A stretch of 64,000 nucleotides of DNA from Escherichia coli. Its GTDB lineage: Bacteria; Pseudomonadota; Gammaproteobacteria; Enterobacterales; Enterobacteriaceae. The stretch is from assembly GCF_013122565.1 (NCBI RefSeq), contig NZ_CP053258.1. One strand, written 5' to 3'. The position numbers and the translations under genes were made by a program. The notes under the pieces were generated by a model. The model was not told the DNA's origin. It searched no databases and saw only the letters and a program-made list of their open reading frames with translations. This document shows positions 5,231 through 59,892 of this stretch, piece by piece; position 1 is the stretch's first letter, and every line of letters begins with the position of its first letter.

Positions 5231-5290
5231 TAACGGCAATAAACTGTTCACTTTAGTGATATTTAAAATATGCATCCTTTTTCTGCTTTT

Positions 5291-5320
5291 CAAGCTGTTC
5301 AAGCTGTTCAAGCTGTTCAG
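5291..5320. repeat. Tandem repeat, 3.3 copies of the 9-bp unit CAAGCTGTT
   Basis: caagctgtt caagctgtt caagctgtt cag read directly in the AT-rich spacer. Confidence 0.9.
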
Positions 5321-5657
5321 CGGCGTAAGAGAAAGTATTGAGTATGAATTCGACGATTTAACCATATCTGTTTGATTGGTAATCATCCGTGATTAATGCT
5401 GGTCTATTGATTACGCCAGCATTAACCGCTTAGGGATGTATTCTTCCTGTTCATATACAGCCCTCGAAAAAGAGAGCAAATAAAACTGTGTCCAATATTA
5501 CTCTACCACTCCAGACCGAAGTATCGGTAGAATTAGCAGAACGGCTGGTACAGTAGATTGGGATAGCGTCATTTGTCAGGCATTCCATTGCCATAATAAT
5601 AATTATGAATCAATAGACGTGCTTCTTGATCATGTCTTAAAAATTATACCACGAGCC

Positions 5658-36297: not shown

Positions 36298-36376
36298 CTG
36301 CCCCGTGCGACTGGTCAGCCAGCCGCTGCGATCATACGCAAAATGCCCCCATCCGCATGCAAGCAGTATTTATCCT

Positions 36377-36682
36377 TTAGGAAAAGAGATTTATAGCTTT
36401 CTCTTGAAGTTCTATACCTATATCCTCAAGTTTGATCAGCTCGTCCTTACTGTACATTCCCTCCCGAAAAGAAAACATTCCATATACATCCATTAGTGCC
36501 AATCCTAAAACTTTTGGAACCATAATTTCATCAGCATATATTTCCGCCAAAAAATCCAGCGCCTTATATAATTCTTCAATTTCATTATCAAAAAAATCTT
36601 TCTTGAGTCTTAATCTAACAGGTATTGAATCATCTCCTAATAATTTATCGACCACTATTTTCAATGCAATCTCTTTATCCAT
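36377..36682 (-). CDS. Predicted immunity protein for orphan toxin 3
   Basis: 101 aa, AT-rich, immediately downstream of orphan module 3. Confidence 0.55.
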   Translation of the reverse strand: MDKEIALKIVVDKLLGDDSIPVRLRLKKDFFDNEIEELYKALDFLAEIYADEIMVPKVLGLALMDVYGMFSFREGMYSKDELIKLEDIGIELQEKAINLFS

Positions 36683-36698
36683 ATATCATTTCCTGTCT

Positions 36699-38315: not shown

Positions 38316-38488
38316 CTAGCTGTTCAGATGGTGAATTTAACTACACCTTCTGGTTATCACCGTATTCAAGTGCCGCGATGCAACTACTGGGAAACTACAC
38401 TCATTCTCTTATTATTTTTAGAAATTTTCATCTATTAAATAATACACATGACCGATATTATTTAACCCTGCTGGGTATAACTGAAAAA

Positions 38489-39340
38489 TTATTTATTTTT
38501 AATTAAATTCATTAAATCCCAAACATTGCTATCATAATGATTGAAACCTTGAATCACAAGATAAGACAATGCTTTCATATCCAACAAAAATCTGATTTTC
38601 CCGTCTATAATTTTTGTATTTTCCGTTATAAACAATCGTTCCAATTTAACAAGATTACTTATTTTAGCTACGCTTGGAATATCACCCATTTTTGAAAAAG
38701 ATATTTTTTTAATTGAAGGTAATTTACTTACATCTTCAATGATTGACACTGCCATTTTTTTGCATAAAGATAAAGACACTTCTTCTATATTTTTCAAACC
38801 ATCTAAAAAAGTCGTGTCCGAAGCCTTAGATAATCCAGATAACTTGATGCTCCTTAAAGTCTTGATAGATGATAAATTAGGGATTGTTTGAATATTGCTA
38901 TTTTTTATCTCTAATGATTGCAAGAATGATCTCCCCGCAACATGCTCTTTTTTTTCTTTAAAATCTATCAATGTTATTTTTTCCAGAGTTCTGTGATTAA
39001 ACAAATTATCAATTCCATTTCGACCTATTAATACAGCCTCTTTTAAAAATGGGAAATATGATAAATCAAGTCTCATTTTATCATCATTCAAAAGATGGAT
39101 GAGTTGTATTTTTTTCAACGAATACAGTTGTGATATATCCTTTATTTTATTGCCTGTGATATATATTTCATTAATGAAATTAATTTCATCAAGAAATGAT
39201 AAATCAGTTATAAGCGGTGACAAAACCAACCCGTTAACTTTCTTTTCCTTCATCGTGTCAACAATATGACTTGTATCGTCATGCTTTTCATACACAAGGA
39301 CACGACTTCCCCGTACACCATAATTTTCCACTAGTCTCAT
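38489..39340 (-). CDS. Leucine-rich-repeat protein (283 aa), positioned as the immunity gene of orphan toxin 2
   Basis: AT-rich; repeated L..L..L.L..N.I LRR-like units (LSFLDEINFINEIYITGNKIKDISQLYSLKKIQLIHLLND..., IQTIPNLSSIKTLRSIKLSGL); 20 bp downstream of orphan module 2. Confidence 0.55.
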   Translation of the reverse strand: MRLVENYGVRGSRVLVYEKHDDTSHIVDTMKEKKVNGLVLSPLITDLSFLDEINFINEIYITGNKIKDISQLYSLKKIQLIHLLNDDKMRLDLSYFPFLKEAVLIGRNGIDNLFNHRTLEKITLIDFKEKKEHVAGRSFLQSLEIKNSNIQTIPNLSSIKTLRSIKLSGLSKASDTTFLDGLKNIEEVSLSLCKKMAVSIIEDVSKLPSIKKISFSKMGDIPSVAKISNLVKLERLFITENTKIIDGKIRFLLDMKALSYLVIQGFNHYDSNVWDLMNLIKNK

Positions 39341-39359
39341 ATATTTCCCCTTAAATAAA

Positions 39360-40820
39360 TCAACACTCCCCCTTCACTCTAAAATCTTGATCTGAAACAT
39401 TTCCTGTATTTGGTGGTCGTTTTTCATTACTGGTTACTCCTCTTCCTCCATTTTTAGCTATTTTCATTGCCTCTAAATTATTTAGCCATTGTTTACTAAT
39501 TCCAGCATATTTATCAAAATTCAACGAATCCAACATTGCCTGAGTTAACTTTCCACTTCGGGCATGTTGCAACATTCTCTGATATAGATTTTTTGTTTGA
39601 CCTGCATACATTTTACCCGCACCTTCATCAAAAAACTCATAAATTGCTTGCCCTTTATATTTTGCAGTAACATCTCTTATTTGTTCTAAAAAATCACTAG
39701 CGAGTCTTACTAATCCCCAAGGATCAATCCACCTCAGCGGATTCGGCGCATACCTGTAAAGATTCAGCCCACCCCGGATCGAAATCGGGTCCTGGCTTAT
39801 GAACCTTCCGCACTCCGGCGCATAATACCTGAACAGATTGTAATGCAGCCCCGTCTCTTCATCATAATACTGCCCCGGCAGCCGCAGCGGTTGCTCAAAG
39901 TACGCCCCGCTGTTGCTGATGTCGCCCCGATTTTCTCCAAATCCCGCCTGGTAGCCCGCCCACACCAGCCTCCCGTCCGGCGCGGTCACCTCCTGTACCG
40001 TGCCCGTCAGGTCCGTGTGGTAATACCAGATTTTTTGACTCTCTCCGCGCCCGGTGATGGCCGCCACTGGCGTGTACGGCTGTTCCGCGTCGTACAGGTA
40101 TGTCCGCTTTCCCTGCCACGTTGTCTCCTGCAACAGCCGGAACCCTTCCCACACAAACGTCGTCCGCCGCTGTTCCCTCTGGACCGTATGGCGGCCATAT
40201 GTCGCCTTGCTGATGCGCCTGCCCAGCGCATCATACTGATACCGCGTCTCGCTGTTGCTGCTGATGACCCGCGTTAACTGGCCCTGCGCGTTCCACTCCA
40301 GTTGCTGGTCCCTGCGCTCTGTCAGTTCGCCCCATTCGTTATAGCGGTAACGGTCACGCCCGTAGCCCGGCAGGCGGTTATCCATCACCGCGCTCTGATA
40401 CTCGTCCGTCAGCAGATTGCCCGCTTTGTCGTAATAATAATGGTCATGGTCGTACATCTGCCCCGTGCGGCTGGTCAGCCAGCCGCTGCGGTCATACGCA
40501 AAGCGCACCGTGTCCGCCTGCATGTGGTGCAGCCGTTCCCCTTCTTTCGTCGGGGTGAGCGTCACTTCCGTTATCTGGTCAAGACGGTTGTAGCTGAAGG
40601 TCCGTGTACTGTGCTGCGTGTCACTGCGCAACAGGCGGCCCAGCGCATCACGCTCCTGCCGCTCATTACGCCCCCCGCCTTCTGTACCCTGCGTCTGGAT
40701 GATGACCGGATACCCGCCCGCATTCAGCGCCAAATGGCTGAGAGAAGCGGGATTTGAGATCGGCACGGGCGTTACCGTGAAGATCTCGGAGGGATGTCTG
40801 ATCCTGCTTGCGGATAACAA
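39360..40820 (-). CDS. Orphan rhs C-terminal toxin module 2: 5'-truncated Rhs core with an internal deletion, plus GIY-YIG nuclease-like tip
   Basis: Core homology starts at ...[14 protein letters not shown] (40727); lacks ~130 codons between the two YDRSGWLT repeats; after DPWGL the tip reads AIYEFFDEGAGKMYAGQTKNLYQRMLQH (GIY...YIG...R...H pattern). Confidence 0.65.
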   Translation of the reverse strand: MLSASRIRHPSEIFTVTPVPISNPASLSHLALNAGGYPVIIQTQGTEGGGRNERQERDALGRLLRSDTQHSTRTFSYNRLDQITEVTLTPTKEGERLHHMQADTVRFAYDRSGWLTSRTGQMYDHDHYYYDKAGNLLTDEYQSAVMDNRLPGYGRDRYRYNEWGELTERRDQQLEWNAQGQLTRVISSNSETRYQYDALGRRISKATYGRHTVQREQRRTTFVWEGFRLLQETTWQGKRTYLYDAEQPYTPVAAITGRGESQKIWYYHTDLTGTVQEVTAPDGRLVWAGYQAGFGENRGDISNSGAYFEQPLRLPGQYYDEETGLHYNLFRYYAPECGRFISQDPISIRGGLNLYRYAPNPLRWIDPWGLVRLASDFLEQIRDVTAKYKGQAIYEFFDEGAGKMYAGQTKNLYQRMLQHARSGKLTQAMLDSLNFDKYAGISKQWLNNLEAMKIAKNGGRGVTSNEKRPPNTGNVSDQDFRVKGEC

Positions 40821-40914
40821 CGAAGTACAGGAACTGCGCAGGGAGCTTTATCAGGTTAAACAGGCAGTTAAGGGGATGCGGGACGGGATGTTTAGTGTGC
40901 TGAACGAAAGTTAA
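40728..40914 (+). pseudogene. SymE-like gene, 5'-truncated copy (3' ~190 bp plus hairpin duplicated from 34497-34725)
   Basis: ...SAKWLREAGFEIGTGVTVKISEGCLILLADNNEVQELRRELYQVKQAVKGMRDGMFSVLNES nearly identical to the 34450 copy; upstream part of the track ORF is antisense rhs sequence; perfect hairpin at 40923-40955. Confidence 0.55.
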
Positions 40915-40975
40915 ATAATAAAAAAGCCGGGAAGGTAAATAAGCTTCCCGGCTTTCCACAACAATTTTAACTTAA

Positions 40976-41464
40976 TTAATCATAAGCATCGCCGTAATTT
41001 TCATATTTCCAATAAATATATTTACCACCTGAGCTATATAATTTATGCAATAATTCTGTAAAAGTCATTGCAATAATTGGACAACTACCTACAACGCCAT
41101 GTATCTCATAATTGCTATCATAACAGCGTCCATTTCTTTCTGTAGAAAAATCAATGGATAAATAATCATTATTATCGGTCCTGCAAATTAAGTACCATGA
41201 AGATGATATATCATCCTCACATGGCTCACCAACTATAAATTTATTTGCCTGTAATATTTCATTATTTTTCAAAATAGTGAAGGAGATTTCCTGCTCTTCA
41301 GAGCAAAACAATTTTATTCCATTACATATTTTGTAAAAACGAACAACATCATCAGGATATTTTAAATAATCAGATGGTAATAAAGGCAAATTACCATCTG
41401 GTGGAATAACTTCACATCTGTTATCATTTTTTATCAAGTCAAGTAATTCATCAATGCCATTCAT
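40976..41464 (-). CDS. Predicted immunity protein for orphan toxin 1
   Basis: 162 aa, AT-rich, immediately downstream of orphan module 1. Confidence 0.55.
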   Translation of the reverse strand: MNGIDELLDLIKNDNRCEVIPPDGNLPLLPSDYLKYPDDVVRFYKICNGIKLFCSEEQEISFTILKNNEILQANKFIVGEPCEDDISSSWYLICRTDNNDYLSIDFSTERNGRCYDSNYEIHGVVGSCPIIAMTFTELLHKLYSSGGKYIYWKYENYGDAYD

Positions 41465-41473
41465 ATTACCACC

Positions 41474-43312
41474 TTAAAAAATAACAGTATCAAACTTCCC
41501 AGAGTATATAAACTGGTTCAATGCCCGGTAATATGCTTCCCTACTGGCAACAGGAACATTTGCGGCATCAAACATTCGTTCAGTAAGATCTTTCATTTCT
41601 CTGCTACTTACTGTTGTCCAATCCACTTTCCCACCAACTCTTCTTCCGGTTTTCTGCTCTAACCAATCTCTATATACTTTTTTTGTTGCAGCATGATTAG
41701 CCTCGGATAATGCAATTGTTGGTGACTTTGAAGGATATTTCCCTCCATAAGATGGCACATTCTTAGACATCCAAATATCAAGCACACCATGATGGTTTTC
41801 TAAAGAGGAATTAATTGGTCGATAAGGAACAACATCAAACTCTTTAACTTCACCGCACTTAAGTCCAAGGGGATCTATCCACCCCAGCGGATTCGGCGCA
41901 TAAGCATACTGGTTCAGCCCACCCGCCAGCCCTATCGGGTCCTGGCTTACGAACCGCCCGCACTCCGGCGCATAATACCTGAACAGATTATAGTGCAGCC
42001 CCGTCTCTTCATCATAATACTGCCCCGGCAGCCGCAGCGGCTGTTCAAAGTACGCCCCGCTGTTGCTGATATCGCCCCGGTTTTCGCCAAATCCCGCCTG
42101 GTAGCCCGCCCACACCAGCGTCCCGTCCGCCGCGGTCACCTCCTGTACCGTGCCCGTCAGGTCCGTGTGGTAATACCAGATTTTTTGACTCTCTCCGCGC
42201 CCCGTGATGGCGGCCACCGGCGTGTACGGCTGTTCCGCGTCGTACAGGTATGTCCGCTTTCCCTGCCACGTTGTCTCCTGCAACAGCCGGAACCCTTCCC
42301 ACACAAACGTTGTCCGGCTTCGTTCTCCCCGGTCCGTATGGCGGCCATATGTCGCCTTGCTGATGCGCCTGCCCAGCGCATCATACTGATACCGCGTCTC
42401 GCTGTTGCTGCTGATGACCCGCGTTAACTGGCCCTGCGCGTTCCACTCCAGCTGCTGGTCCCTGCGCTCTGTCAGTTCGCCCCATTCGTTATAGCGGTAG
42501 CGGTCACGCCCGTAGCCCGGCAGGCGGTTATCCATCACCGCTCCCTGATATTCATCCGTCAGCAGGTTGCCCGCTTTATCGTAATAATAATGGTCATGGT
42601 CATACATCTGCCCCGTGCGGCTGGTCAGCCAGCCGCTGCGGTCATAGCTGAACACCAGGCAACCGCGCAGTTTGTCATTGATGCCGCCGACTTCACCGTC
42701 TGCGTTCCAGATATAGTCCCGCGCTGTCACGCTGTCGCTGTGTGACGGGGGTGTGGCTGTCTGCTGTGGGTTCTGGCTGCCGCCTGGCAGGCTGCGCTGC
42801 CAGCTTAACCGGTTGTCGGCGTTGTAGCCGCTGAACGTCGCCAGTTTCCCCTGGGTGCGCATCACCTGACGGTGCAGACTGTCACGCTCATATTCACTGA
42901 CCGTGATACCGTCCAGTGCCGTCTGGAGCAGATGTCCGCTGCCGTAGTAAAGATGGCTGAGGTGCTGCCCGTTCGGTAACGTGATGTCGGTGGGATTGCC
43001 CAGCGCGTCACGCTGATATTTTATGCTGCCGTGCACGCTGTGCTCTGCCGTCAGCCACCCGCTGCGGTCATACGCAAAGCGCACCGTGTCCGCCTGCATG
43101 TGGTGCAGCCGTTCCCCTTCTTTCGTCGGGGTGAGCGTCACTTCCGTTATCTGGTCAAGACGGTTGTAGCTGAAGGTCCGTGTACTGTGCTGCGTGTCAC
43201 TGCGCAACAGGCGGCCCAGCGCATCACGCTCCTGTCGCTCATTACGCACCCCGCCTTCTGTACCCTGCGTCTGGATGATGACCGGATACCCGCCCGCATT
43301 CAGCACAAACAT
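41474..43312 (-). CDS. Orphan rhs C-terminal toxin module 1: 5'-truncated Rhs core (~1.6 kb retained, homology up to ~43468) plus unique ~130-aa tip
   Basis: Core identical in register to the main rhs from ...[12 protein letters not shown] to DPLGL; tip KCGEVKEFDVVPYRPINSSLENHHGVLDIWMSK... (possible xHH nuclease-like motif, weak). Confidence 0.65.
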   Translation of the reverse strand: MFVLNAGGYPVIIQTQGTEGGVRNERQERDALGRLLRSDTQHSTRTFSYNRLDQITEVTLTPTKEGERLHHMQADTVRFAYDRSGWLTAEHSVHGSIKYQRDALGNPTDITLPNGQHLSHLYYGSGHLLQTALDGITVSEYERDSLHRQVMRTQGKLATFSGYNADNRLSWQRSLPGGSQNPQQTATPPSHSDSVTARDYIWNADGEVGGINDKLRGCLVFSYDRSGWLTSRTGQMYDHDHYYYDKAGNLLTDEYQGAVMDNRLPGYGRDRYRYNEWGELTERRDQQLEWNAQGQLTRVISSNSETRYQYDALGRRISKATYGRHTDRGERSRTTFVWEGFRLLQETTWQGKRTYLYDAEQPYTPVAAITGRGESQKIWYYHTDLTGTVQEVTAADGTLVWAGYQAGFGENRGDISNSGAYFEQPLRLPGQYYDEETGLHYNLFRYYAPECGRFVSQDPIGLAGGLNQYAYAPNPLGWIDPLGLKCGEVKEFDVVPYRPINSSLENHHGVLDIWMSKNVPSYGGKYPSKSPTIALSEANHAATKKVYRDWLEQKTGRRVGGKVDWTTVSSREMKDLTERMFDAANVPVASREAYYRALNQFIYSGKFDTVIF

Positions 43313-43517
43313 CCGTATCAGACCGTCCGGGCGCTGTTCTCCCGTCAGCCGTCCGTCCGCATCGTGACTGAACCGGTAAAGCGCTCCGTTGCCGTTGCTC
43401 AGACTGGCAATCCATCCCTCCGCGGTATAATGCCAGCGCGTCTCCCGTTTCTCTTCATCCGTGTGGCACGCCAGTTAACATACGTCTACTGACAAAACCA
43501 TTAGTCCAAACAAAATC

Positions 43518-48474
<4,957 letters not shown>

Positions 48475-48497: not shown

Positions 48498-50711
48498 TTA
48501 TTCAGAAACGTCCGGGGTAGGTAACGGGGCAATATCATCCGCAGTCATGGCTGTGCCGCCATCCGGATTCATATCAATGCCACTGCCAATGAGTTGCATA
48601 ACATCGCTGGTGTGCAGTAAAAGTTGTTTTCCGCAAAACTCAATCGAGCCATCCTTGTGTAATACAAGCGCTGCATTGCCGCAACGAAGGGTAAATTGAT
48701 CGCCAACATCCAGACGATATGTCGTTCCGACATTGATGGTTTGAGCCAGTTTGACGGAAAGACCATCATTTTTTGTGATGGTGGCATTACGGTCTTCTCC
48801 CACGCTGATGGTTTCATTTTTGACAATGGTTTTTATGCGATCGACCATGACCGTGTGGGTTTCATTGTTTTTTACCGTGGTATTGAGGTCTTTTTCCGCA
48901 TGGAACTTCACCTCTTCTGCCCCCGTTTTATCGTCAAAGCGCAGCATGTTTCCGTTGGTCGGCCCGCCATACAGCGAGTGGCTGAATATCCCGCTCTGCG
49001 AGGCCATACCCGGCAGTCCCCACGGCGGCATGGTGTCCTGGTTATAGGTGCGCCCTACAATGATCGGTAAATCCGGGTCGCCGTTTTTGAAATCCACCAG
49101 CACTTCCTGACCGATGCGCGGGATCTGGATCATGCCGAATCCTTTCCCTGCCCACGGATAGCTGACGCGGATCCAGCAGGAGCTGTTTTCGTCATTATTA
49201 CCGTAACGATCCCAGCCAAACTGCACCTTCACCCGTCCATATTTGTCCGTCCAGATTTCCTGCCCCGCCGGGCCGGTGACGATGGCGCTCTGCGGGCCTT
49301 TGGTGTGGGGTTTGCTCAGGGTTCGCTGTGGGCGGTAAACTTCGCTGGTTGGGTGCAGTTCAAACGTGGTGACATAGGTAAAATGCTGATCCTGGCCGCT
49401 GTGCTGCGCATTGTCCCGTAAAAACAGCGTGGTCTGTACCAGCAGGTATTCCTGATTAATTTCTGCCGTCGGGTGATTCATCAATGTAAAGGTGTACCCG
49501 GTCATGAGGGTACGGATATGACCGGCCCCATGTGCCCGGCTGCCTGGGCTACGCTGCGCTTCCATACGAATACGCGTCAACATCTCGCCTTCGCCCGTAG
49601 TGAAGTAATCACCAGGCCATTCGTAATGCTCGTATTCAGCATGACCGGTATCACGCGGACTGGCCACGGTACTTTTAAGCAGCGAACGAGGCTTCATAAA
49701 ATCAAAATCGTCCATCACCCACTTTCCAGTACGCAGCCTCTCACTGGCCGTAATGGTGTGAATAAATTCCTTATCCAGTTTCAGCCCTTCCTGGTGCCAC
49801 TCCACCAGTGGCGAGTCAGGGCACGCTTTATGACCATTGATGGCATCCGCCAGCACCAGCGTGTGGCTGTTCTCGCTGTGCTCAAACCACCAGTAAATTC
49901 CCCACTCCTGCATCAGGCGCTGGATGAAATCAAAATCCGTTTCACCGTACTGTACCTGCCAGGCACGAGGTGGATAATTTTCCACCAGCCGTTTTTCCAC
50001 CGGAAAGGAATATTCATCCAGTACTTCATCGAGAATATCCACCACGGTTTTATTCTGGAACGCTTTGTAGTCGCTGGTGTGGGTCAGCAGTTTCAGCCAC
50101 GGTTCAATGCGTAATTCATACGTTACCGAGCGGCCCTCATGGCCCACCACCCGCGCCGCTGTCACCAGCCCGCTGATATGCCGTTTGCCGCCGCCGTCCA
50201 GTTCGATATTGACGCACAGATCTTTGCCCACCATGGGCTGAAGCGGCAGGTTAGCAGCGGGGGAAACGTACCCCAGGTTCAGGGCGTCCGGCGTTTTAAG
50301 CTGTACTGTGTAGGAAAACAGATTCCCAAGCCCTTCCGAACCATTCATGCCTGCAAACAAAAGCATCTGCGGCGGCACCGCACTACCACTTACTGTGACG
50401 TTATGCGCCCCCGGACCACCTGCAGCAAGCGACGCCGCCGCATCCTGAACTGCACCAGCCATATCCGATATCCCTGCTGCGGCGGCTGCGGCTTGCGCAG
50501 CAGCTACTGCGGCTTTAACCAGACCTGACGGTTCCGGCAACGCACCAAACAGGTCCGCCGCTGCCTGTTCTACCATCTGCTCGGCTGCATCAGCTACATC
50601 GGTTGCGGCTGAACCAGGGCTTATACCACCACTTTCGCCAGCTATTGGTGGTGTGGTGATGACGGGTCCACCGTTTCCAACTGGTTTATTACCCGTAGAT
50701 ACAAAACTCAT
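48498..50711 (-). CDS. vgrG: T6SS spike protein VgrG (737 aa as the longest ORF, includes a ~100-aa Ala/Gly-rich N-terminal extension; true start uncertain)
   Basis: gp27/gp5-like VgrG body ([25 protein letters not shown]..., C-terminal ...[19 protein letters not shown]...); N-terminal [22 protein letters not shown]...[10 protein letters not shown] segment precedes the conserved start of the VgrG fold. Confidence 0.85.
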
Positions 50712-50735
50712 GATATTTGCTCCTTTAATACCGGA

Positions 50736-51122
50736 TTAAAATCTAGCCCCTGGTGGCCAAAAAATATAAGTAATAACTCTCCATTGCCCGTCTTTATAAT
50801 GAAACCAACATGTCAGATTCAAATCCCCCTGCAAATTCCAGAACATTTCCTTAATAGGAACATCTTGAAATTCAGGATCTGTTATGCGATAAGTTTGATT
50901 CAAGCCGATATAATACTCACCAACAAATTTATATCGTGGCCTCACGAACTCATGAGCAGGCGGCCCATATTTTTTCATAAAAAAGATGTCATTACTTCCA
51001 TCATGTATATCATTTTCTTCATAATATTTGGTGGATTGAGCAACTGCAGAAGGCTTGAAAACATTCACTGTAGTTATGTAAGTTATTGAAAGAAAAATCA
51101 CTATAATGCAGAAAAATTTCAT
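50736..51122 (-). CDS. Predicted periplasmic immunity protein 1 (signal peptide; paralogue of 52819..53181)
   Basis: 128 aa, MKFFCIIVIFLSITYITTVNVF... signal peptide; shares ...EFQDVPIKEMFWN..DLNLTCW.HYK.GQW.VI...WPPG..F with the paralogue; 4-nt overlap with upstream effector gene. Confidence 0.6.
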   Translation of the reverse strand: MKFFCIIVIFLSITYITTVNVFKPSAVAQSTKYYEENDIHDGSNDIFFMKKYGPPAHEFVRPRYKFVGEYYIGLNQTYRITDPEFQDVPIKEMFWNLQGDLNLTCWFHYKDGQWRVITYIFWPPGARF

Positions 51123-51820
51123 TTGGTTACATTCAATAAAGTAAATTTAGTTTCAGGCATTATGACATTCAACGTTATAGTTGCGTTTTTAAGGTATCGT
51201 TCCCGAAGCTCCATTCCCACATTCATCAACCCACTAATATCTCCAACATACGGAGACGAAGAATCATAATCATCATCTAAGTAACCAAGTACATGTCCGG
51301 CTTCATGAGGTATATTTACTTGCAACGTATTGTTACAGTTAATACATTTCGCTACTTTTTCCAGGTCCGCTGAATCAACATGAACCGTACTGTTTTTAAA
51401 ATCAACATATGTTCTTAAATCAGCACCAGGCAAAACCTTTGTTGCAATAACCAACCAGTCTTCATTCTGAGATGCAGAAATTATTCTTACATCAAAAGGC
51501 AAAGCTTTACCCTGAAATTTTTTAGCGAACTCAGATTCACCGGAAACAGAATAAGTTATTTTCCCATTCCATGCCTGCTGAACAGATAAATATATCGCTC
51601 GCATAAAAATAGCTTTTTCCCATATAGTCCAGTCATCTGTAACGGTATTATCCTTATACCACTCATACTTCCATCTTATCACAGCCGTAATCGAACCAGT
51701 ATTTTGATTTAATAAATACGTCCTCCTACCATCCTTATGTATAATGATATCGCCATCAATATTTGTTTTTTCATAGTATTCGGCCAGCAAACTATTCTCA
51801 TCATATTTAAGCTTGGTCAT
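51119..51820 (-). CDS. Candidate T6SS effector 1: HExxH zinc-metallopeptidase-like protein (233 aa)
   Basis: HEAGHVLGY motif plus conserved block LMNVGMELRERYL shared with the 268-aa paralogue; AT-rich; no signal peptide; followed by a signal-peptide protein. Confidence 0.6.
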   Translation of the reverse strand: MTKLKYDENSLLAEYYEKTNIDGDIIIHKDGRRTYLLNQNTGSITAVIRWKYEWYKDNTVTDDWTIWEKAIFMRAIYLSVQQAWNGKITYSVSGESEFAKKFQGKALPFDVRIISASQNEDWLVIATKVLPGADLRTYVDFKNSTVHVDSADLEKVAKCINCNNTLQVNIPHEAGHVLGYLDDDYDSSSPYVGDISGLMNVGMELRERYLKNATITLNVIMPETKFTLLNVTK

Positions 51821-52032
51821 TTTACTCTCATTAAATAATAATTATTTGTATCGAAAATATTATTTTATATATTACGAGTATTGCCCCTTCAGCCGCAGCG
51901 CATCCACATACCGTCCTTCACTGCAGGGCAAGATTACGAAAGCCCGCCCCCCGCAAGGACTGACGCGAGGTAGTTTCTGTCCATGGCTGCTTTTCTCATC
52001 TTACGTCTTAACCCTGCCTTGGTTTCGCCGTA

Positions 52033-52794
52033 CTACACCTGCCAGGCGCGGGGGGGATAATTTTCCACCAGCCGTTTTTCCACCGGAAAGGAATATTCAT
52101 CCAGTACTTCATCGAGAATATCCACCACGGTTTTATTCTGGAATGCTTTGTAGTCGCTGGTATGGGTCAGCAGCTTCAGCCATGGCTCAATGCGTAATTC
52201 ATACGTTACCGAACGGCCCTCATGGCCGACCACCCTCGCCGCCGTCACCAGCCCGCTGATATACCGTTTTCCGCCACCGTCCAGTTCAATGTTGACGCAC
52301 AGGTCTTTGCCCACCATGGGCTGAAGCGGCAGGTTAGCAGCGGGGGAAACGTACCCCAGGTTCAGGGCGTCCGGCGTTTTAAGCTGTACTGTGTAGGAAA
52401 ACAGATTCCCAAGCCCTTCCGAACCATTCATGCCTGCAAACAAAAGCAGCTGCGGCGGCACCGCACTACCACTTACTGTGACGTTATGCGCCCCCGGTCC
52501 ACCGGCAGCAATCGACGCCGCCGCATCCTGAACTGCACCAGCCATATCCGATATCCCTGCTGCGGCGGCTGCGGCTTGCGCAGCAGCTACTGCGGCTTTA
52601 ACCAGACCTGACGGTTCCGGCAACGCACCAAACAGGTCCGCCGCTGCCTGTTCTACCATCTGCTCGGCTGCATCAGCGACATCGGTTGCGGCTGAACCAG
52701 GGCTTATACCACCACTTTCGCCAGCTATTGGTGGTGTGGTGATGACGGGTCCACCGTTTCCAACTGGTTTATTACCCGTAGATACAAAACTCAT
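52033..52794 (-). pseudogene. vgrG: vgrG 5' fragment (N-terminal ~255 codons duplicated; body replaced)
   Basis: Near-identical to the first ~780 bp of vgrG at 49935-50711, including the Ala-rich N-terminal segment; homology breaks near 52017-52036. Confidence 0.75.
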
Positions 52795-52818
52795 GATATT
52801 TGCTCCTTTAATACCGGA

Positions 52819-53181
52819 TTAAAATTTGGATCCTGGCGGCCAATAAACTCGGGATATAACTATCCATTTACCATTTTTATAATGAAGCCAACATGTTAAA
52901 TTTAGATCTTTATTAACATTCCAAAACATCTCCTTAATAGGAACATCTTTAAATTCAGGATTATTTGAAGGGTAAGTCCGTTCTATGCCACCATAATAAA
53001 TACCTACAAAATCATGCCTTGGGTTTATAAAATAATGTTCAGGAGAACCATATTTTCTCACTAGTGAATCTTCATCATCCCCCCACTGAACATCTTTGTT
53101 ATGCATCTCACTGGCAAAAATATCTAGAGTTACAAGCAATATCAATAACGTAAAAAATAGAGCGATTTTCTTCTGGATCAT
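52819..53181 (-). CDS. Predicted periplasmic immunity protein 2 (signal peptide; paralogue of 50736..51122)
   Basis: 120 aa, MIQKKIALFFTLLILLVTLDIFA signal peptide; conserved C-terminal block with paralogue. Confidence 0.6.
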   Translation of the reverse strand: MIQKKIALFFTLLILLVTLDIFASEMHNKDVQWGDDEDSLVRKYGSPEHYFINPRHDFVGIYYGGIERTYPSNNPEFKDVPIKEMFWNVNKDLNLTCWLHYKNGKWIVISRVYWPPGSKF

Positions 53182-53984
53182 TTTATTACACTCGCAACAG
53201 AAAACGTAGTTAAGGGATATACTAAATTCAAGTCAATACAGACACCTTCCAGGTAGCGTTCCCGAAGTTCCATCCCAACATTCATTAACGCGGCAGTATC
53301 TATTTTATATTTAGACACAGGCTTACCAAACTTATCAAGTTCATATTCATCCTCCAGATAACGAATCATATGTCCAATTTCATGAACTATATTTACCTGA
53401 TAAAAACCACATATTGACTGATTCTCTGGAGCACATTTTTCTGATAACGAAGTATCTTTAAAATAAAAATGAGCAAACCGATTTTTCCAGTTAACATAAG
53501 GCCTGCCATCATCATTACCAGGAACGGTTCTTAATACGTCTACATTCCAGTGTTCTTTTTGATGGACCGGAATCATATTTATGCTGAAAGGCAATCTTTT
53601 ACTCTTGAATTTCTCAGCAAAATCAGAGTCCCCTGAGACAGATAAAAATATCTTATCATTCCATCCATAACAGATTGCAGAAAATGATTCATATATAAAA
53701 CTAACTTCATCCAGGTATGTCCAGTTATCTCCTACATTGTTCTGATTCACCCAGTTAAATTTCCATCTCATTAATAATGCAATGTCGCCTGTATCACTAT
53801 TCAGGATATATTCGCCATGTTCTGTATTCATCCTGAGACACTTCCCATCTTCTACGGTGTCAGGGCAAAACTTATGCATGAGTTTAATAAAGAATTCATG
53901 CGATAGATTTATTTTACTCTCTCCAACAACACCATCTACATGTGTTGTGAGCGAACCAGATTTATTCCCTGAAGAAGAACTCAT
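53178..53984 (-). CDS. Candidate T6SS effector 2: HExxH zinc-metallopeptidase-like protein (268 aa)
   Basis: HEIGHMIRY motif and LMNVGMELRERYL block; first ~10 codons and the 25 bp upstream resemble the vgrG 5' end (MSSSSGNKSGS vs [11 protein letters not shown]). Confidence 0.6.
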   Translation of the reverse strand: MSSSSGNKSGSLTTHVDGVVGESKINLSHEFFIKLMHKFCPDTVEDGKCLRMNTEHGEYILNSDTGDIALLMRWKFNWVNQNNVGDNWTYLDEVSFIYESFSAICYGWNDKIFLSVSGDSDFAEKFKSKRLPFSINMIPVHQKEHWNVDVLRTVPGNDDGRPYVNWKNRFAHFYFKDTSLSEKCAPENQSICGFYQVNIVHEIGHMIRYLEDEYELDKFGKPVSKYKIDTAALMNVGMELRERYLEGVCIDLNLVYPLTTFSVASVIK

Positions 53985-54311
53985 GCTATTGACTCCTTTA
54001 ATACTGGGGTAGAGATTTAGCCCACGACAGTCGTATTCCTGTTTTTTACATCCAATAAAATAGAATATTAATAAATTAGGATAATATTTTTACTTTACTC
54101 ACTCTACTTTCAATCTGAGTTCTCCGTACAATCGGGTTCTGACATTGAACCTTCCGACTGAAATACACCACTCCCCCCTCTATCCAGTCGCAACGCATCC
54201 ACATACCGCCCCCTTGCTGTTCTGCTGCCAGAACCATCCATGCCCCTGCTGCGCCTGCGTTAACATTTTTGCTAGCCAGCACGGTCACGGCAGGCAATTC
54301 CATGACATGTA

Positions 54312-54773
54312 CTACTCATCCGTACAACCCAGCCCCCGGCGCTGAACCACTTCACTGGCAAACGTTGCTCCGGTTTTTTTCATTATTCCCTGCTGGATTT
54401 TTTGTAACTCCGGGTATACAACCCGCTCACATTCATTTATTTCCCATATGTCACCCGTCTTAGGACTAACCGAAAACAACCCTAAATAGTCTGTTGCTCC
54501 AGCAGTCGGCGTATCATAGCCAAGACTAAAATCATAATATCCGGGATGAGGCGCATTGCCCTGACCATCCTGTAAATCTCCATCAATAAAAATCCCTTCC
54601 AGCGATAAATTATACTTTTGGTGCCTGAGTACAATAATAAGCAGTTTTTCCGCCTGTGCTTTCGTCATCCCTTCGCGGTTTATATCTGATAAATTAAATT
54701 CAGACGTATTCCCCTGAACGTAGCAAACCGCAGAGGCAAGAAGAAAAAAAACAAATATTATTTTACGGGGCAC
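54312..54773 (-). CDS. Predicted periplasmic immunity protein for the glucosaminidase-like effector (signal peptide)
   Basis: 153 aa, MPRKIIFVFFLLASAVCYVQG signal peptide; overlaps the upstream effector stop. Confidence 0.55.
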   Translation of the reverse strand: MPRKIIFVFFLLASAVCYVQGNTSEFNLSDINREGMTKAQAEKLLIIVLRHQKYNLSLEGIFIDGDLQDGQGNAPHPGYYDFSLGYDTPTAGATDYLGLFSVSPKTGDIWEINECERVVYPELQKIQQGIMKKTGATFASEVVQRRGLGCTDE

Positions 54774-55228
54774 GCCATTCTCCTTCCGACCATAATAATA
54801 ATGTCAGCAGTTTTTTTGGCATAATTATCTGTTCCGCCTGTGCTACTATCTCCAGAATTAAATCCGGCCTTTACCAGAGCATCACAGAAAGCCAAAGCAT
54901 CCTTTATGTCTCTGGCTGCATTACCATATTTTATTGCAAAAGATCGTGCACAGATTGAAAAAGACGGAAAAGTAGCCACCCGGGTTTTCTTGTTACCGTG
55001 CGGACGGATTTCGCCTGACTGAAATGATGCAGGGGCATGCAGGGAGAAATAGTTGTTATATTCCCTGGCAATACGGCCTGTACCATACTGGCTCTCCGCC
55101 GCGGCAAGCCCCAGAATATTTTCCACAGGAACATTAAGTTGTTTAGCGATTAATTCACATTCTTTCAGATGCTGCTGAACAAACCTTACTGCATTAACAT
55201 CATTACAGGCTTTGTCATAAGACCCCAT
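54758..55228 (-). CDS. Candidate T6SS glycoside-hydrolase effector (GH73 / FlgJ-type glucosaminidase-like, Tge-like)
   Basis: 156 aa; ILGLAAAESQYGTGRIAREYNNYFSLHA matches the GH73 catalytic-Glu region pattern (A..ES.wG.......NN.FG); no signal peptide; followed by a signal-peptide protein. Confidence 0.55.
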   Translation of the reverse strand: MGSYDKACNDVNAVRFVQQHLKECELIAKQLNVPVENILGLAAAESQYGTGRIAREYNNYFSLHAPASFQSGEIRPHGNKKTRVATFPSFSICARSFAIKYGNAARDIKDALAFCDALVKAGFNSGDSSTGGTDNYAKKTADIIIMVGRRMACPVK

Positions 55229-55255
55229 GATCCACTACTCCTTATCTGATTATTT

Positions 55256-56029
55256 TTAATGCTGCCGGATATCCAGCCGCAACGCATCCACATACCGCCC
55301 CTCGCTGTTCTGCTGCCAGAACCAGCCCTGCCCCTGCTGCGCCTGCGTCAGCATTTTGTCCGGCCAGCCCGGCCACGGCAGGTGGCGCACACCGGGCAGT
55401 TCCACTACCGGCACGTCCGGCAGGCCGGTGAGTTCCCGGCTACGCTGCGGTACACGTCGTAAGCCGCGTAGCCACTGCGCCCAGCGCGGCCCCGGTCGCC
55501 ACATCGCCCAGAGCTGGTCTGTCTGCTCCGCCAGTCGACCGCAGCGTTCTGTCTGTGGTGAGACATGAGCTGCCGTCAACTGCGCCAGCCAGTACAGCCA
55601 GCCCTTTGTGTCATCCAGGCTCTCTTCCAGCCATTCCCGCCCGGCACGCTGGTAAATCACCAGTGGCCACGACCTGCCCGTACTGTCACGTGAGGCGGTC
55701 AGCACCCCGGTCAGCCACTCATCGCGCCCGCCAATGGGGAGAAATCCCGGCGATAATACAAAGCTCCACGGTAGCGGATGGTGTTCCGGCACCTCCGTTT
55801 TCTCGCGCGGTGACAGGTGCATCCAACCGTCATTTACTCCGGTTTTCGCAGCATCCGTTCCTTCCGGCAGAACAATATGCCGCCCCTGTCCCAGCCACGT
55901 CTGCTGGTTCAGCCACGCCTGCCACACCTGCCCATCGTTCGCGCTCACCCGCCAGCGCACGTAGTCCCGCTGATCCGGCAGTCTGCCGAACATCGCCGGA
56001 ACCGATACCACCGCAGCCCGGCGCATCAC
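55256..56029 (-). CDS. tagF: T6SS-associated protein TagF-like (DUF2094)
   Basis: 257 aa directly downstream of and overlapping tssM; 3'-end sequence recurs as ~30-100 bp remnants at 54196-54300 and 51888-51912. Confidence 0.6.
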   Translation of the reverse strand: MMRRAAVVSVPAMFGRLPDQRDYVRWRVSANDGQVWQAWLNQQTWLGQGRHIVLPEGTDAAKTGVNDGWMHLSPREKTEVPEHHPLPWSFVLSPGFLPIGGRDEWLTGVLTASRDSTGRSWPLVIYQRAGREWLEESLDDTKGWLYWLAQLTAAHVSPQTERCGRLAEQTDQLWAMWRPGPRWAQWLRGLRRVPQRSRELTGLPDVPVVELPGVRHLPWPGWPDKMLTQAQQGQGWFWQQNSEGRYVDALRLDIRQH

Positions 56030-59000
56030 AGCGCTCGCTCCGGGCAGGCGAAGCGTTGCAGTAGCCCACGGTTCACCGGGTCAAAATCCCGTCCTGCGGT
56101 GATTTCCAGCACCACCCGCCGCCCGTCAAAGCTATATTCAACCTGCTGTGTTCCCCGTACCGCCGTCTCCTGCGCGTTACCCGCATCCAGCAGGTGAAAC
56201 AGCGCCCACGGTCCGTTAGTCAGCAGCGTCGAGGTGTCCTGGCGGATGCGCGGGCTGGCGGTGATTTCCGCCATTGAGCCGTTGCGCGGCCCCGGCCAGT
56301 TCACTTTCAGCGGTCTGACCGGGCCGTGAGCGTAACGCAGCACCTGACCGTCGATATCAATCACCAGTTCAGTGATTGCAGGGTCCATATCCACGACGCG
56401 GACCTGCATCGCCCAGGAAAACTTTTTCCCGCCTTCACCGTTAAAAAAAACGCTGCGGATCTGTTTCGCCTCCTGAAACGGCGTCAGGTCCGGCCCCTGT
56501 AAGGTCATGTTGCCTTCGGTCGGTTTGTAGCGCCACGGGTTGCTGGCGGTGTCCGCCAGCGGGGCCAGTTGCTTCGTCCAGAACGCATCCAGCACACCGC
56601 CGCTGGCAAAGATATGGTTAAAATCGTCCGCGCTGACCTCCTGCGGGCTGTCGGTAAAGGGGTAGCGCCCGTCAATAGCATCACGGCACTCATCGCCAAT
56701 CACCGCTTCCATCTGCGCGTTCAGCACTTCACCGGTGCCGGCGTTGATTTTGCGCGTTCCCTGCTGCGTGAGATCCAGCAAAATATTTTTCAGCGGTGCG
56801 GGCAGTTTTGCCGCCTCCAGTTGCAGTTTATCCGCCGCCGAAATACGGCCAGGTAATGTGCTCGCTGCCAGCGCGCTGTCGGCGATGGTGAGCTGGGTGT
56901 AATATTCATTGAGCATTGTCAGCAGCGAATTTAACTGCGGCGCGCCACCAGTCTGCCCGCTGTCTGTCCGCCCGGAAACCACTTCCCGCAAGGCGGCGAA
57001 ACGGTCATCCACCAGTGATTTCTCCAGCCGCTCTTCCGGGTGGATGTCCTGTAACAGCTTTGCCGTCTGCCCCGCTTTTCCCACATTGCCGGAGAGCCGG
57101 TCCTGCGCACGCTGGGCCATCTGCTTTTGTCTGGCCTGCGCATCCAGCGGCGGCACCAGCGTGGTCTGCTCCACCACCGCTTTACTCAGGCGCATCAGCG
57201 GGGAATCCGGCGAGGCCAGGGTACGCAGCACCTGAAGGTCATACGCCAGCCCGGGACTGCCGTCTTCCCCGGCACTGTTGATGCTGTGAATACTTGCCAG
57301 AAAATCCTGCCAGCGGCGGGCATATTCAGCCAGGTACAGGCGGCGTACCTCACGGGTAACCGGGAGTTCCTGCCCCGGCAACTGGCTCATCACAATATCC
57401 GTTGTTTTTTTTTGCGCGTTTTCCCGGCCCATCACCCAGGCATCGTCCGCTGATGCGGCTGCGACAAACTCCGACAGCCGTTTGTCGAACAGTTCCCGGT
57501 AGCCTTCGCGAGTGAAGATGCCGGGCACGCCCCTATCCAGCGGCGCGCCATCCGTGCGGACAAAAACCGTTCCCGCATCCGCGCCCACAGCGCGAACCAG
57601 CGAAAACTCCTGCGGTGCTTCGCTCTCCATGGAAGCCAGGGCTCGAGTGTAGATACGCTCGGTGCTGGTATGGCCGTCAAGGAAGGCTCGCGCCTGGCGG
57701 ATCAGCCCCTCATCTTTTTCCCAGGGCGAATGCACCACGCGGCTGCCGTCAAACAGGGCATCGATATGCTCCAGCACGGCGGCGCGACCGCCGAACTCCG
57801 CCACGCTGTCGCGGTTGTCCAGGTCGTTCAGCACCCAGGCGTGGATCTCCGCCGCGTTGTATTTATCCTCGTGGTCCTTATCGAGGTTCAGCAACAGATA
57901 AACATGCAGGGCGTCATAGGCGGCTTTGCTGTCCTGACGCGCAATCGCATCCGAAAGCACGTATTCCATGCGTTTCACCAGCGGTGGCAGCAGTAACTGG
58001 TCCAGCAGGCGGTCATACAGGGATGCGACGCTCTCCATCACCGGCGGAACGCTGTAAAGACCATAACGCCAGGCCAGCGGCGGCGAGTCCGGGTCCAGTC
58101 CCGGCCAGGCAGAGAGCGCCCGTGCCTGGTTCAGCAGGGCCGGAACAGGCTGCATAGCAGGTTTTCCGGTATAGGCTTTGACATCACCATCCAGTTGGGT
58201 CGTCCGGCTGGCGATTTCATTCAGATAACCGCTGTTACCCTGCTGGCTGCCCTGCATTCCCTGCCACAACCAGAAAGCCAGCGCCAGTACCAGCAGATGC
58301 CCGCCAGTGCGCAGCAGGCGGTAACGCCAGGCCCACTGAAGGTTCGGCTCCACCAGGTGCGCTTCGCGGAAGATAAACTGCGTCAGTAGATCGTGCAGGA
58401 AATAGCTGCGGTTGCCGTCCGGCAGGGTATGGGATGGGGAATCAGCCTTCCCTTTGATAGCACGGACAAAACGCTGCCAGATGCCCGTCTTGTCAGCCAC
58501 GGCGTCTGCCTGCGCCTGCGCGGCGCTGGTAAAAAATACGCCGCGCAGGGTGTTGTTAAGCTGGGTGGCGTCAAATTTTGAATCGAGGAAAATCTGCTCA
58601 ATGGCTTCCAGCAGCGGCGCACCCAGCGCGGCAAATTCACGCGGGAAGCGATAGAGCCGCTGGCGGCTTTTAAGGTCGTACTCTTCCTGCAACCGGGTAT
58701 CCAGCCCCTGATCCAGCCGCAGGGTCAGGTTTGCCAGTTCCTGGCTACAGAGCGCATGCAGCGACTGCGGATCGCTGGCGTGACGCCTGCGGCTGTATGG
58801 CAGAGTAAAGCCCCAGACCTGGGCGCGCAGGTGGCTGGTCAGCCCGTGGAAATACTCCGTAAAGCCCGGCAGCAGATCCATCTTGGTGACAACCAGATAG
58901 ACCGGAAAACGAATACCCAGCGTCTCCCGCAGTTCCGCCAGCCGCGCACGCAGGGCCGCACAGGCAGCCAGCCGTTCCGCCGGGGACTGCGCAGTCAGAT

Positions 59001-59892
59001 CCGCCACGTTCAGCGTCAGGATCACGCCGTTGAGCGGTGCGCCGGGGCGGTGTTTACGCAGCAGTCCCAGAAACCCGTGCCACTCCCCGGCGTTGCGCTG
59101 GGTCGCGCTGATTTCGCCACCGTCATCGTGACGGGCATAGCGCCCGGCGGTGTCAATAAGCACTGCTTCGTTGGTAAACCACCAGTCGCAATGCAGCGTT
59201 CCGCCGCCCGGCACGGTGAGGATATGCGCGGTTTGCTCCATCTGCTCCGCCAGCGGAAACTGCAATCCGGTGTTGAGCAGTGCTGTGGTTTTACCGTCGC
59301 CGGGGCTACCGATAACCATGAACCAAGGCAGTTCGTACAGAAAACGTTTTCCTTCCAGTACGTTACGCCAGCCCGGCAGGTCTACGCGCAGCTGTTTCAG
59401 TTGCCGAATAGCGCGAGTGACAATATGGCTGACGGTGCGTAAGTCGGCTTTAATTTCCCCGGCCACCGGTACGTCTTCCCCGCGCGGATGCAGGAAACGG
59501 CGCAGCAGTTGTTCGTCCAGACGCAGCGCCCGCCACAGCCGGTACAGGCCATACAGCGCATAAGACAGAAGGATCAGGCCGATAAGCGTCAGACGCAGCC
59601 ACAGCGGCGCAAATGGATGAACATCACCGAAAGCCAGCAACGGTGAGACAAAGCCGATAACCAGGCACAGAACCGTAACGCCAATGATGCTCATAGACCA
59701 GTTAACCAGCCACAGTGCGAGGAACATCAGTAACAGAACGATGGTGACTAACCGACTTCCCACGGACGCGAGTGGATGCAGGGTGTCAAACGCGACCAGC
59801 GGCCCAATAAACCAGACCAGCAACGCCAGCATTACCAGGCCAACAATGGCCAGCGCGCGGCGGGAAAACAGCATACTGAGAAATTTTTGCAT
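56026..59892 (-). CDS. tssM: T6SS membrane core protein TssM (IcmF-like)
   Basis: 1288 aa; N-terminal TM helices, Walker A GSPGDGKTT, large periplasmic C-terminal region; GC-rich. Confidence 0.9.
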   Translation of the reverse strand: MQKFLSMLFSRRALAIVGLVMLALLVWFIGPLVAFDTLHPLASVGSRLVTIVLLLMFLALWLVNWSMSIIGVTVLCLVIGFVSPLLAFGDVHPFAPLWLRLTLIGLILLSYALYGLYRLWRALRLDEQLLRRFLHPRGEDVPVAGEIKADLRTVSHIVTRAIRQLKQLRVDLPGWRNVLEGKRFLYELPWFMVIGSPGDGKTTALLNTGLQFPLAEQMEQTAHILTVPGGGTLHCDWWFTNEAVLIDTAGRYARHDDGGEISATQRNAGEWHGFLGLLRKHRPGAPLNGVILTLNVADLTAQSPAERLAACAALRARLAELRETLGIRFPVYLVVTKMDLLPGFTEYFHGLTSHLRAQVWGFTLPYSRRRHASDPQSLHALCSQELANLTLRLDQGLDTRLQEEYDLKSRQRLYRFPREFAALGAPLLEAIEQIFLDSKFDATQLNNTLRGVFFTSAAQAQADAVADKTGIWQRFVRAIKGKADSPSHTLPDGNRSYFLHDLLTQFIFREAHLVEPNLQWAWRYRLLRTGGHLLVLALAFWLWQGMQGSQQGNSGYLNEIASRTTQLDGDVKAYTGKPAMQPVPALLNQARALSAWPGLDPDSPPLAWRYGLYSVPPVMESVASLYDRLLDQLLLPPLVKRMEYVLSDAIARQDSKAAYDALHVYLLLNLDKDHEDKYNAAEIHAWVLNDLDNRDSVAEFGGRAAVLEHIDALFDGSRVVHSPWEKDEGLIRQARAFLDGHTSTERIYTRALASMESEAPQEFSLVRAVGADAGTVFVRTDGAPLDRGVPGIFTREGYRELFDKRLSEFVAAASADDAWVMGRENAQKKTTDIVMSQLPGQELPVTREVRRLYLAEYARRWQDFLASIHSINSAGEDGSPGLAYDLQVLRTLASPDSPLMRLSKAVVEQTTLVPPLDAQARQKQMAQRAQDRLSGNVGKAGQTAKLLQDIHPEERLEKSLVDDRFAALREVVSGRTDSGQTGGAPQLNSLLTMLNEYYTQLTIADSALAASTLPGRISAADKLQLEAAKLPAPLKNILLDLTQQGTRKINAGTGEVLNAQMEAVIGDECRDAIDGRYPFTDSPQEVSADDFNHIFASGGVLDAFWTKQLAPLADTASNPWRYKPTEGNMTLQGPDLTPFQEAKQIRSVFFNGEGGKKFSWAMQVRVVDMDPAITELVIDIDGQVLRYAHGPVRPLKVNWPGPRNGSMAEITASPRIRQDTSTLLTNGPWALFHLLDAGNAQETAVRGTQQVEYSFDGRRVVLEITAGRDFDPVNRGLLQRFACPERAL

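Follow-up and report, generated by a model that had tools for sequence, protein, structure and literature searches.

Remnants of the tagF 3' end as probable scars of effector–immunity cassette accretion in an Escherichia coli type VI secretion locus

The stretch of DNA analysed here, a window of 64,000 nucleotides (nt) from Escherichia coli (contig NZ_CP053258.1), contains a type VI secretion system (T6SS) locus similar to the one on pathogenicity island 6 of Salmonella (SPI-6). The variable slot of this locus holds three cassettes between the genes tagF and vgrG, each cassette consisting of an effector gene and an immunity gene (an E–I pair): Tge–Tgi, E2–I2 and E3–I3. Every gene of the slot region is on the minus strand. 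In addition to the full-length tagF, the slot contains two remnants of the tagF 3' end, here called tagF' and tagF'', together with a fragment of vgrG (vgrG') and a stub of an insertion sequence (IS). The tagF repeats are most probably scars of the accretion of E–I cassettes between tagF and vgrG, inert and without a function of their own. In order of transcription, and with lengths of open reading frames (ORFs) and proteins given in amino acids (aa), the features of the slot region are as follows.

56026..59892, minus strand: tssM, a 1288-aa ORF that carries this name in all E. coli comparators; it is conserved and lies upstream of the variable slot
55256..56029, minus strand: full-length tagF, 257 aa; Pfam TagF_N, E=1.1e-13; positions 55270-55382 are the reference copy of the repeat
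54758..55228, minus strand: cassette 1 effector, a Tge-type glucosaminidase of 156 aa; Pfam Glucosaminidase, E=9e-10
54312..54773, minus strand: cassette 1 immunity protein of the Tgi2PP family, 153 aa; Pfam T6SS_Tgi2PP, E=1.4e-17
54295..54311, minus strand: junction spacer from the Tgi stop codon to tagF', 17 nt, without tagF homology
54181..54294, minus strand: tagF' remnant (copy 2), comprising 114 nt, the last conserved stretch of tagF
53985..54180, minus strand: tagF tail and intergenic region specific to cassette 2, 196 nt
53178..53984, minus strand: cassette 2 effector E2, 268 aa, with an HEIGH motif; a putative zinc metallopeptidase
52819..53181, minus strand: cassette 2 immunity protein I2, 120 aa
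52024..52817, minus strand: vgrG' fragment, consisting of the vgrG 5' untranslated region (UTR) and the first ~770 nt (253 codons); partial Pfam Phage_GPD match
51925..52023, minus strand: IS stub of 99 nt, the right (3') end of an ISAs1-family element (ISEc1/ISEc5, H-repeat); its terminal inverted repeat adjoins tagF''
51872..51924, minus strand: tagF'' remnant (copy 3), the last 17 codons and stop of an L003-type tagF allele, in frame
51821..51871, minus strand: native intergenic region between tagF and E3, 51 nt, collinear with locus L003, where a full-length tagF stands in front of it
51119..51820, minus strand: cassette 3 effector E3, 233 aa, with an HEAGH motif
50736..51122, minus strand: cassette 3 immunity protein I3, 128 aa
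48498..50711, minus strand: full-length vgrG, conserved, downstream of the slot; Pfam Phage_GPD, Gp5_trimer_C and Phage_base_V

A preliminary description of the window had placed degenerate repeats of the tagF 3' end at 54196-54300 and 51888-51912. Both repeats are real and lie in the places named, with coordinates slightly off. In local alignments of tagF (55200-56029) with the two target regions, scored against a shuffle null, copy 2 (54181-54294) matched 55270-55382 at 100 of 114 positions with a 1-nt insertion (score 161; null mean 19.6, maximum 30), and copy 3 (51890-51923) matched 55274-55307 at 30 of 34 positions (score 48; null mean 18.9, maximum 35). Both copies therefore extend past a short common core. 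This 24-nt core, CAGCCGCAACGCATCCACATACCG, codes for the conserved TagF C-terminal motif RYVDALRL; it occurs three times in the window at one mismatch or fewer, with none expected in 100 dinucleotide shuffles. Chance similarity as the source of the repeats was ruled out by the shuffles.

Only copy 2 is degenerate. Read in the tagF frame, tagF' meets a TGA at the third codon and is further disrupted by a +1 frameshift; it is a dead fragment. Copy 3, by contrast, keeps its reading frame and was shortened by the IS rather than decayed. It had appeared short and degenerate because it was compared with the tagF of the window, which ends in SEGRYVDALRLDIRQH and has a C-terminal tail of its own (LDIRQH, then the stop). 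When measured against the tagF of E. coli 06-00048 (locus L003), copy 3 consists of the last 17 codons and the stop (51872-51924) and reads SEGRYVDALRLKGQYS up to that stop. The TagF_N domain was found in an intact frame only in the full tagF and in neither remnant, and tagF' and tagF'' are pseudogene fragments rather than tagF genes. In comparator loci the NCBI Prokaryotic Genome Annotation Pipeline (PGAP) already lists such remnants as pseudogenes, either of incomplete tagF or of 'phage late control D'; the equivalent of tagF' in L002, L004 and L007 is named 'TagF domain-containing protein, incomplete', and that of vgrG' 'phage late control D family protein, incomplete'. An assembly artefact is excluded for both remnants, since other, independent complete genomes carry them as well. 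A 75-aa ORF (54076-54303) that overlaps tagF' was considered as a gene and rejected as spurious: it is out of the tagF frame, has no Pfam match and is unconserved between strains in its 3' part, and PGAP marks the same region as a pseudogene.

Neither remnant is debris of the cassette upstream; each is the original tagF end, with the intergenic region, of the cassette that follows it downstream. In E. coli 06-00048 the gene order is tssM, Tai4, Tae4, tagF, an E3-type effector, an I3-type immunity gene and vgrG, and window positions 51821-51924 are collinear with the last 17 codons, stop and intergenic region of that tagF, after which the effector of that allele follows. The remnant tagF'' is thus the original tagF end of the E3–I3 cassette. 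A similar correspondence was found for tagF'. The full-length tagF of strain AR_0077 (L009) precedes the same 244-aa effector as does tagF' in L010, L007 and L004, and the tail and intergenic region after tagF' in these three loci are identical at 193-197 of 203 positions to those after the full-length tagF of L009 and L014. In the window, the tail and intergenic region after tagF' (53985..54180) are unrelated to the equivalent stretch of other cassettes (72/219), and E2 was found in only three complete E. coli genomes, in each of them behind tagF'. The earlier reading of the remnants as insertion footprints lying 'after' the glucosaminidase pair and the vgrG fragment is supported as regards the addition of cassettes and needs correction as regards which cassette they belong to.

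To place the window among other strains, we surveyed 5426 complete E. coli genomes, of which 114 carry a window-type tagF. Single-cassette and intermediate states of the slot were both observed. Loci L003, L013, L014 and L015 consist of tagF, one E–I pair and vgrG; two cassettes are present in L001, L004 and L009, and three in L002, L007, L010 and L016. A comparison with cassette-free T6SS loci had been proposed as a check, but no such locus was seen, each intact locus inspected having at least one E–I pair in the slot, and the single-cassette loci serve instead as the shorter states. The tagF' remnant was found in 12 genomes with a single breakpoint, and these are exactly the 12 genomes with Tge–Tgi. 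The junction of vgrG', IS stub and tagF'' was found in 33 genomes and occurs with three different upstream cassettes. No E. coli genome covers 80% or more of the region with the exact three-cassette combination of the window; the closest is that of Escherichia sp. E1V33 (L016). Thus accretion in the slot between tagF and vgrG holds, but the serial insertion proposed earlier did not take place in this strain, because the junctions are common to 12 and 33 E. coli genomes and to another Escherichia species. Outside E. coli the survey is thin, as the cross-species TagF scan gave just four loci.

A decayed T6SS island in E. coli L73 (L008:5868-8052), located between yafV and tRNA-Asp, still contains vgrG', the IS stub, tagF'', E3 and I3. 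Both E3 and I3 are intact ORFs there, whereas tssM, tagF and most core T6SS genes are gone. Most of the 33 junction-bearing genomes appear to share this arrangement, judging from the one degraded locus inspected and from hit tables for the rest. The survival of E3–I3 in this island may represent the retention of an orphan immunity gene.

The vgrG' fragment (52024-52817) duplicates 49941-50734 of the full-length gene at 768 of 794 positions (97%), and 21 of the 26 mismatches fall in its distal 280 nt. The adjoining IS stub (51925-52023) is 96-97% identical over 97-99 nt to the end of K-12 ydcC/ISEc5, and matches the 3' ends of ISAs1-family elements (ISEc1/ISEc5; K-12 ydcC and yhhI) in more than 2400 E. 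coli genomes. Alignment of five IS copies placed the terminus of the element (CAGGGCAAGAT...) exactly at 51925, touching tagF''. Two blast hits had suggested a longer terminus that reaches into tagF''; in the five-copy alignment the extra bases proved to be chance matches. On its other side the stub joins IS-internal sequence to vgrG at ~nt 794, with microhomology of at most 2 nt.

In Escherichia sp. E1V33 a complete 1.26-kb IS (L016:13464-14722), 95% identical to K-12 ISEc5, lies between vgrG' and tagF''. It has CAGGG(C/A)AAGAT termini at both ends, its left terminus adjoins vgrG at ~nt 333, and its junction with tagF'' is identical to that of the window. The presence of the same IS/tagF'' junction with an intact element indicates that copy 3 was cut by the IS. 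One ancestral IS insertion set the length of tagF'', and the later deletions differ by lineage. The IS may have landed in a vgrG'/tagF'' junction that already existed, or it may have created that junction, for instance through recombination of IS copies with one another. The E1V33 locus has further lesions (L016:12064-13439), with E2 frameshifted near codon 60 and the vgrG fragment internally deleted over codons ~30-77, so that a common scaffold is decaying differently by lineage.

The cassettes themselves are much more diverged than the sequences that flank them. E2 and E3 are 39% identical at the aa level and I2 and I3 44%, as compared with nt identities of 97% for vgrG' and vgrG and 88% for tagF' and tagF. 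This contrast excludes simple duplication followed by drift and points to the import of alleles. Recombination has also acted on tagF itself: the 3' 305 nt of the window gene are 99-99.7% identical to L009 and L002, whereas the whole gene is at most 95% identical to that of any complete E. coli genome, so the window tagF is a mosaic. The tagF' of L002 is likewise a chimera, formed by a crossover between a remnant and a functional tagF. Its 5' 48 nt match all other remnants at 48/48 positions and the full tagF of L009 at 40/48, and its 3' 79 nt match the L009 gene at 77/79 and the other remnants at 67/79.

Two Tge–Tgi alleles were found, with 99.7% and ~74% nt identity to that of the window, and the 5' part of tagF' is identical across both in the strains compared. 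The Tgi/tagF' join is non-homologous, with a 17-nt spacer that has no recognisable origin; Escherichia sp. E1V33 has an identical spacer, and it is missing behind Tgi in Enterobacter sp. ENT03 (L017). The vgrG'/IS join has microhomology of 2 nt or less. Both junctions are old, additive events of single origin that were then reassorted by ordinary homologous recombination.

E2 and E3 are members of one uncharacterized effector family, defined by the conserved motifs HExGHxxGYLxDEY and LMNxGMELRxRY. Sequence searches gave no Pfam, NCBIfam or PDB match for this family, and two relatives had sub-threshold matches to Peptidase_M64. The family probably corresponds to the ~243-aa zinc-peptidase candidates of variable region 2 (VR2) of Salmonella SPI-6 (PMC10469887). 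Both E2 and E3 are full-length ORFs, and a truncated, displaced effector with an orphan immunity gene was not seen in the window. The start of E2 is itself probably a fused scar of the vgrG 5' end. Positions 53961-54023, which cover the E2 ribosome-binding region and first ~13 codons, resemble the 5' UTR and start of vgrG (76% over 66 nt, E=3e-8); the N-termini read MSSSSGNK in E2 and MSFVSTGNK in VgrG, and E2 is ~24-35 aa longer at its N-terminus than its relatives. A separate 114-nt remnant of the vgrG 5' end was seen before an E gene in Citrobacter amalonaticus (L019:11999-12112), in the same relative position as the scar at the E2 start.

Similar arrangements were seen in other genera. In Enterobacter sp. 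ENT03, what follows Tge–Tgi is not tagF' but a fragment of an E-family gene, its C-terminal third, with an orphan immunity gene; this represents an independent insertion of Tge–Tgi with a different right-hand breakpoint. The same genome also contains a dead tagF 3' remnant of ~75 nt with an in-frame TAG (L017:3377-3456), upstream of tssM, between tssL and Tai4/Tae4. The effector directly after this remnant is 76-84% identical to the one that follows full-length tagF in E. coli A20 (L015), which suggests that the tagF end travels with its cassette; the Enterobacter cassette was apparently relocated together with its tagF end. In Citrobacter amalonaticus, a tssM 5' fragment of ~130 codons is followed by an effector with a Tlde1 domain and a small ORF (L019:4555-5037 and 5106-5474). 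This cassette lies directly upstream of the full tssM, a similar scar at another slot of the cluster.

Downstream of vgrG, the window continues with two further genes, named after their comparators.

48031-48474, minus strand: DcrB/Eag-like protein
43871-48010, minus strand: Rhs protein, 1379 aa

Four more rhs-core fragments of 0.3-1.6 kb, 93-98% identical to 44257-45871, lie at 36000-43474 downstream of the main rhs, and each is followed by different ORFs. Together they make up an orphan Rhs toxin array of the classical kind, within the same locus. The IS family of the stub sits beside rhs fragments in comparator genomes, and H-repeat/ISAs1 elements are classically associated with the Rhs elements of E. 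coli.

We favour, with a probability of about 80%, the view that the tagF repeats are scars of cassette accretion. The slot normally holds one E–I pair, which newcomers would usually replace through homologous recombination between conserved flanks. On two occasions an incoming segment would have been added rather than exchanged. In one event, a segment of tagF, Tge and Tgi would have been put before a resident tagF through a non-homologous join 114 nt before the resident stop, leaving tagF'. In the other, a segment of tagF, an E–I pair and the 5' part of vgrG would have been put before an E3–I3 locus, leaving vgrG' and, as tagF'', the 3'-terminal 53 nt of the resident tagF; the boundary of tagF'' would be the terminus of the ISAs1-family element, later cut down to its 99-nt stub. 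Each junction arose once, long ago, and was spread and combined by homologous recombination, with the remnants still serving as substrates for crossovers. For the additive joins themselves we infer illegitimate recombination that was one-sided and anchored by homology.

Several observations weigh against this account. Every full-length allele compared over the 5' 48 nt of tagF' shows 8 differences there, and the whole remnant is 82-89% identical to the alleles examined; no full-length tagF closer than 89% was found in E. coli, Escherichia sp. E1V33, Enterobacter or Citrobacter. No genome was found to have a full-length tagF directly before E2, so the exact state of the E2 cassette before insertion is unobserved. 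The intact IS of E1V33 has no target-site duplication, and its flanks (GTGCGGTG and CAGTGAAG) are unrelated, which indicates that at least one side has been rearranged. The left junction of the IS also differs between lineages: in the window, IS-internal sequence meets vgrG at ~nt 794, and in E1V33 an intact terminus meets it at ~nt 333. The IS may have been a secondary insertion with later adjacent deletions. Finally, homology-facilitated illegitimate recombination as the mechanism is put forward by analogy with Vibrio cholerae (PMC5361080), with one junction, of 17 nt, to judge it by.

The alternative that survives best, although improbable, is a tandem duplication in place. Here a unit of the tagF 3' end, an E–I pair and the vgrG 5' part would have been duplicated, spontaneously or through the IS, and one copy would then have been replaced by another allele through homologous recombination. 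The ends of the unit are those that such an event would give, the IS lies exactly at the joint of the duplication, and vgrG' is 100% identical to vgrG over long stretches. However, E2 and E3 share only 39% of their residues between flanks that are 88-100% identical, so an allele replacement has to be added; no genome with two identical cassettes was seen; and the junction of Tge–Tgi with tagF', where only the tagF end is duplicated, is left unexplained. At the vgrG'/tagF'' junction taken separately, IS-mediated tandem duplication followed by allele replacement is possible.

We consider it very unlikely that the remnants are kept for cis elements, such as a promoter, an RNA-processing site or a signal for translational coupling, that serve the expression of the downstream effector and immunity genes. 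Every cassette does keep its own tagF tail and intergenic region, and E3–I3 is intact with tagF'' in the L73 island, where the upstream tssM and tagF are gone, an arrangement apparently shared by most of the 33 genomes. Against this, promoter-like sites are not enriched (7 as compared with 11.8 expected), the coding strand has none within tagF'' or within the conserved portion of tagF', and the remnants vary freely in length, with tagF' carrying a stop, a frameshift and 12% substitutions. Least probable of all is an attC- or dif-like function of the 24-nt core as the target of a site-specific recombinase, in the fashion of integrons: although all remnants, including one from Enterobacter, end at the same point with the core kept to within two changes and the cassettes stacked in one orientation, their upstream ends vary (114, 53 and ~75 nt) and those characterized are a non-homologous join and an IS terminus, the conservation of the core among alleles is explained by the RYVDALRL motif, the core forms no hairpin (folding z-scores of +0.8, +0.5 and -0.2, no better than shuffled sequence), the annotation of twelve comparator T6SS loci lists no recombinase (the window itself was not screened exhaustively), and the crossover inside a remnant lies upstream of the core, as is typical of general homologous recombination.

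No paper that describes these E. coli tagF remnants turned up in literature searches. A study of vgrG-linked module exchange in agrobacteria reportedly describes processes that diversify T6SS effector collections, in a different T6SS lineage and with different flanks. Cassette accretion as proposed here has a close parallel in V. cholerae, whose T6SS effector genes are sequentially displaced and for which homology-facilitated illegitimate recombination has been proposed (Kirchberger et al. 2017, PMC5361080). As in that model, a conserved region upstream would anchor the E–I modules, their downstream join would be non-homologous, and older modules would be pushed away from the conserved gene, the resulting arrays being passed on by homologous recombination (PMC5361080). 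Unlike in V. cholerae, whole E–I pairs survive here with the old effectors untruncated, and the scars are the tagF 3' end and the vgrG 5' half rather than effector 3' ends, with an IS remnant at one junction. The Enterobacter locus does give the V. cholerae-type outcome of an effector fragment with an orphan immunity gene. A second parallel is the displacement of Rhs C-termini, which gives rise to orphan rhs toxin arrays (Jackson et al. 2009, as cited in PMC5361080). In both cases each displaced module has part of a conserved sequence copied in front of it, and an array of the Rhs kind is present in the same window, but the sequence repeated in the slot comes from separate neighbouring genes and not from the toxin gene.

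In Salmonella, VR2 of the SPI-6 T6SS lies downstream of tssM and encodes Tge2/Tgi2P, Tlde1 and ~243-aa candidate zinc-peptidase effectors, together with periplasmic immunity proteins (PMC10469887). The slot described here matches VR2 in its position downstream of tssM and carries similar cargo. The authors of that study (Blondel group) regarded a recombination hot spot as possible but unsupported, there being no surrounding mobile elements (PMC10469887). The Escherichia loci, in contrast, carry explicit footprints in the form of duplicated flank fragments, chimeric remnants and an IS.

More tentatively, the ends of tagF, vgrG and tssM might act as portable homology arms that move with E–I pairs and allow cassettes to be added, swapped and moved without a dedicated recombinase. 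This idea is prompted by the crossover inside a remnant, by the exchange of Tge–Tgi alleles between tagF and tagF', and by the relocated Enterobacter cassette with its tagF remnant, and we regard it as a possibility that falls well short of being likely. If true, it would describe an integrase-free cassette array in the SPI-6-like T6SS of Enterobacteriaceae, working across slots and genera.

Weapon loci are known to grow in this manner, and the present case is a clear but unremarkable instance that reveals no new mechanism or function. It traces, base by base, the route by which three peptidoglycan-targeting toxin–immunity pairs accumulated in one E. coli T6SS locus, where relatives have one. 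The remnants should be useful as markers for typing effector repertoires and for ordering the acquisition of cassettes, and they also explain automated pseudogene calls. The Escherichia equivalent of SPI-6 VR2 bears the physical footprints of recombination and of a mobile element that were noted as lacking in Salmonella (PMC10469887).

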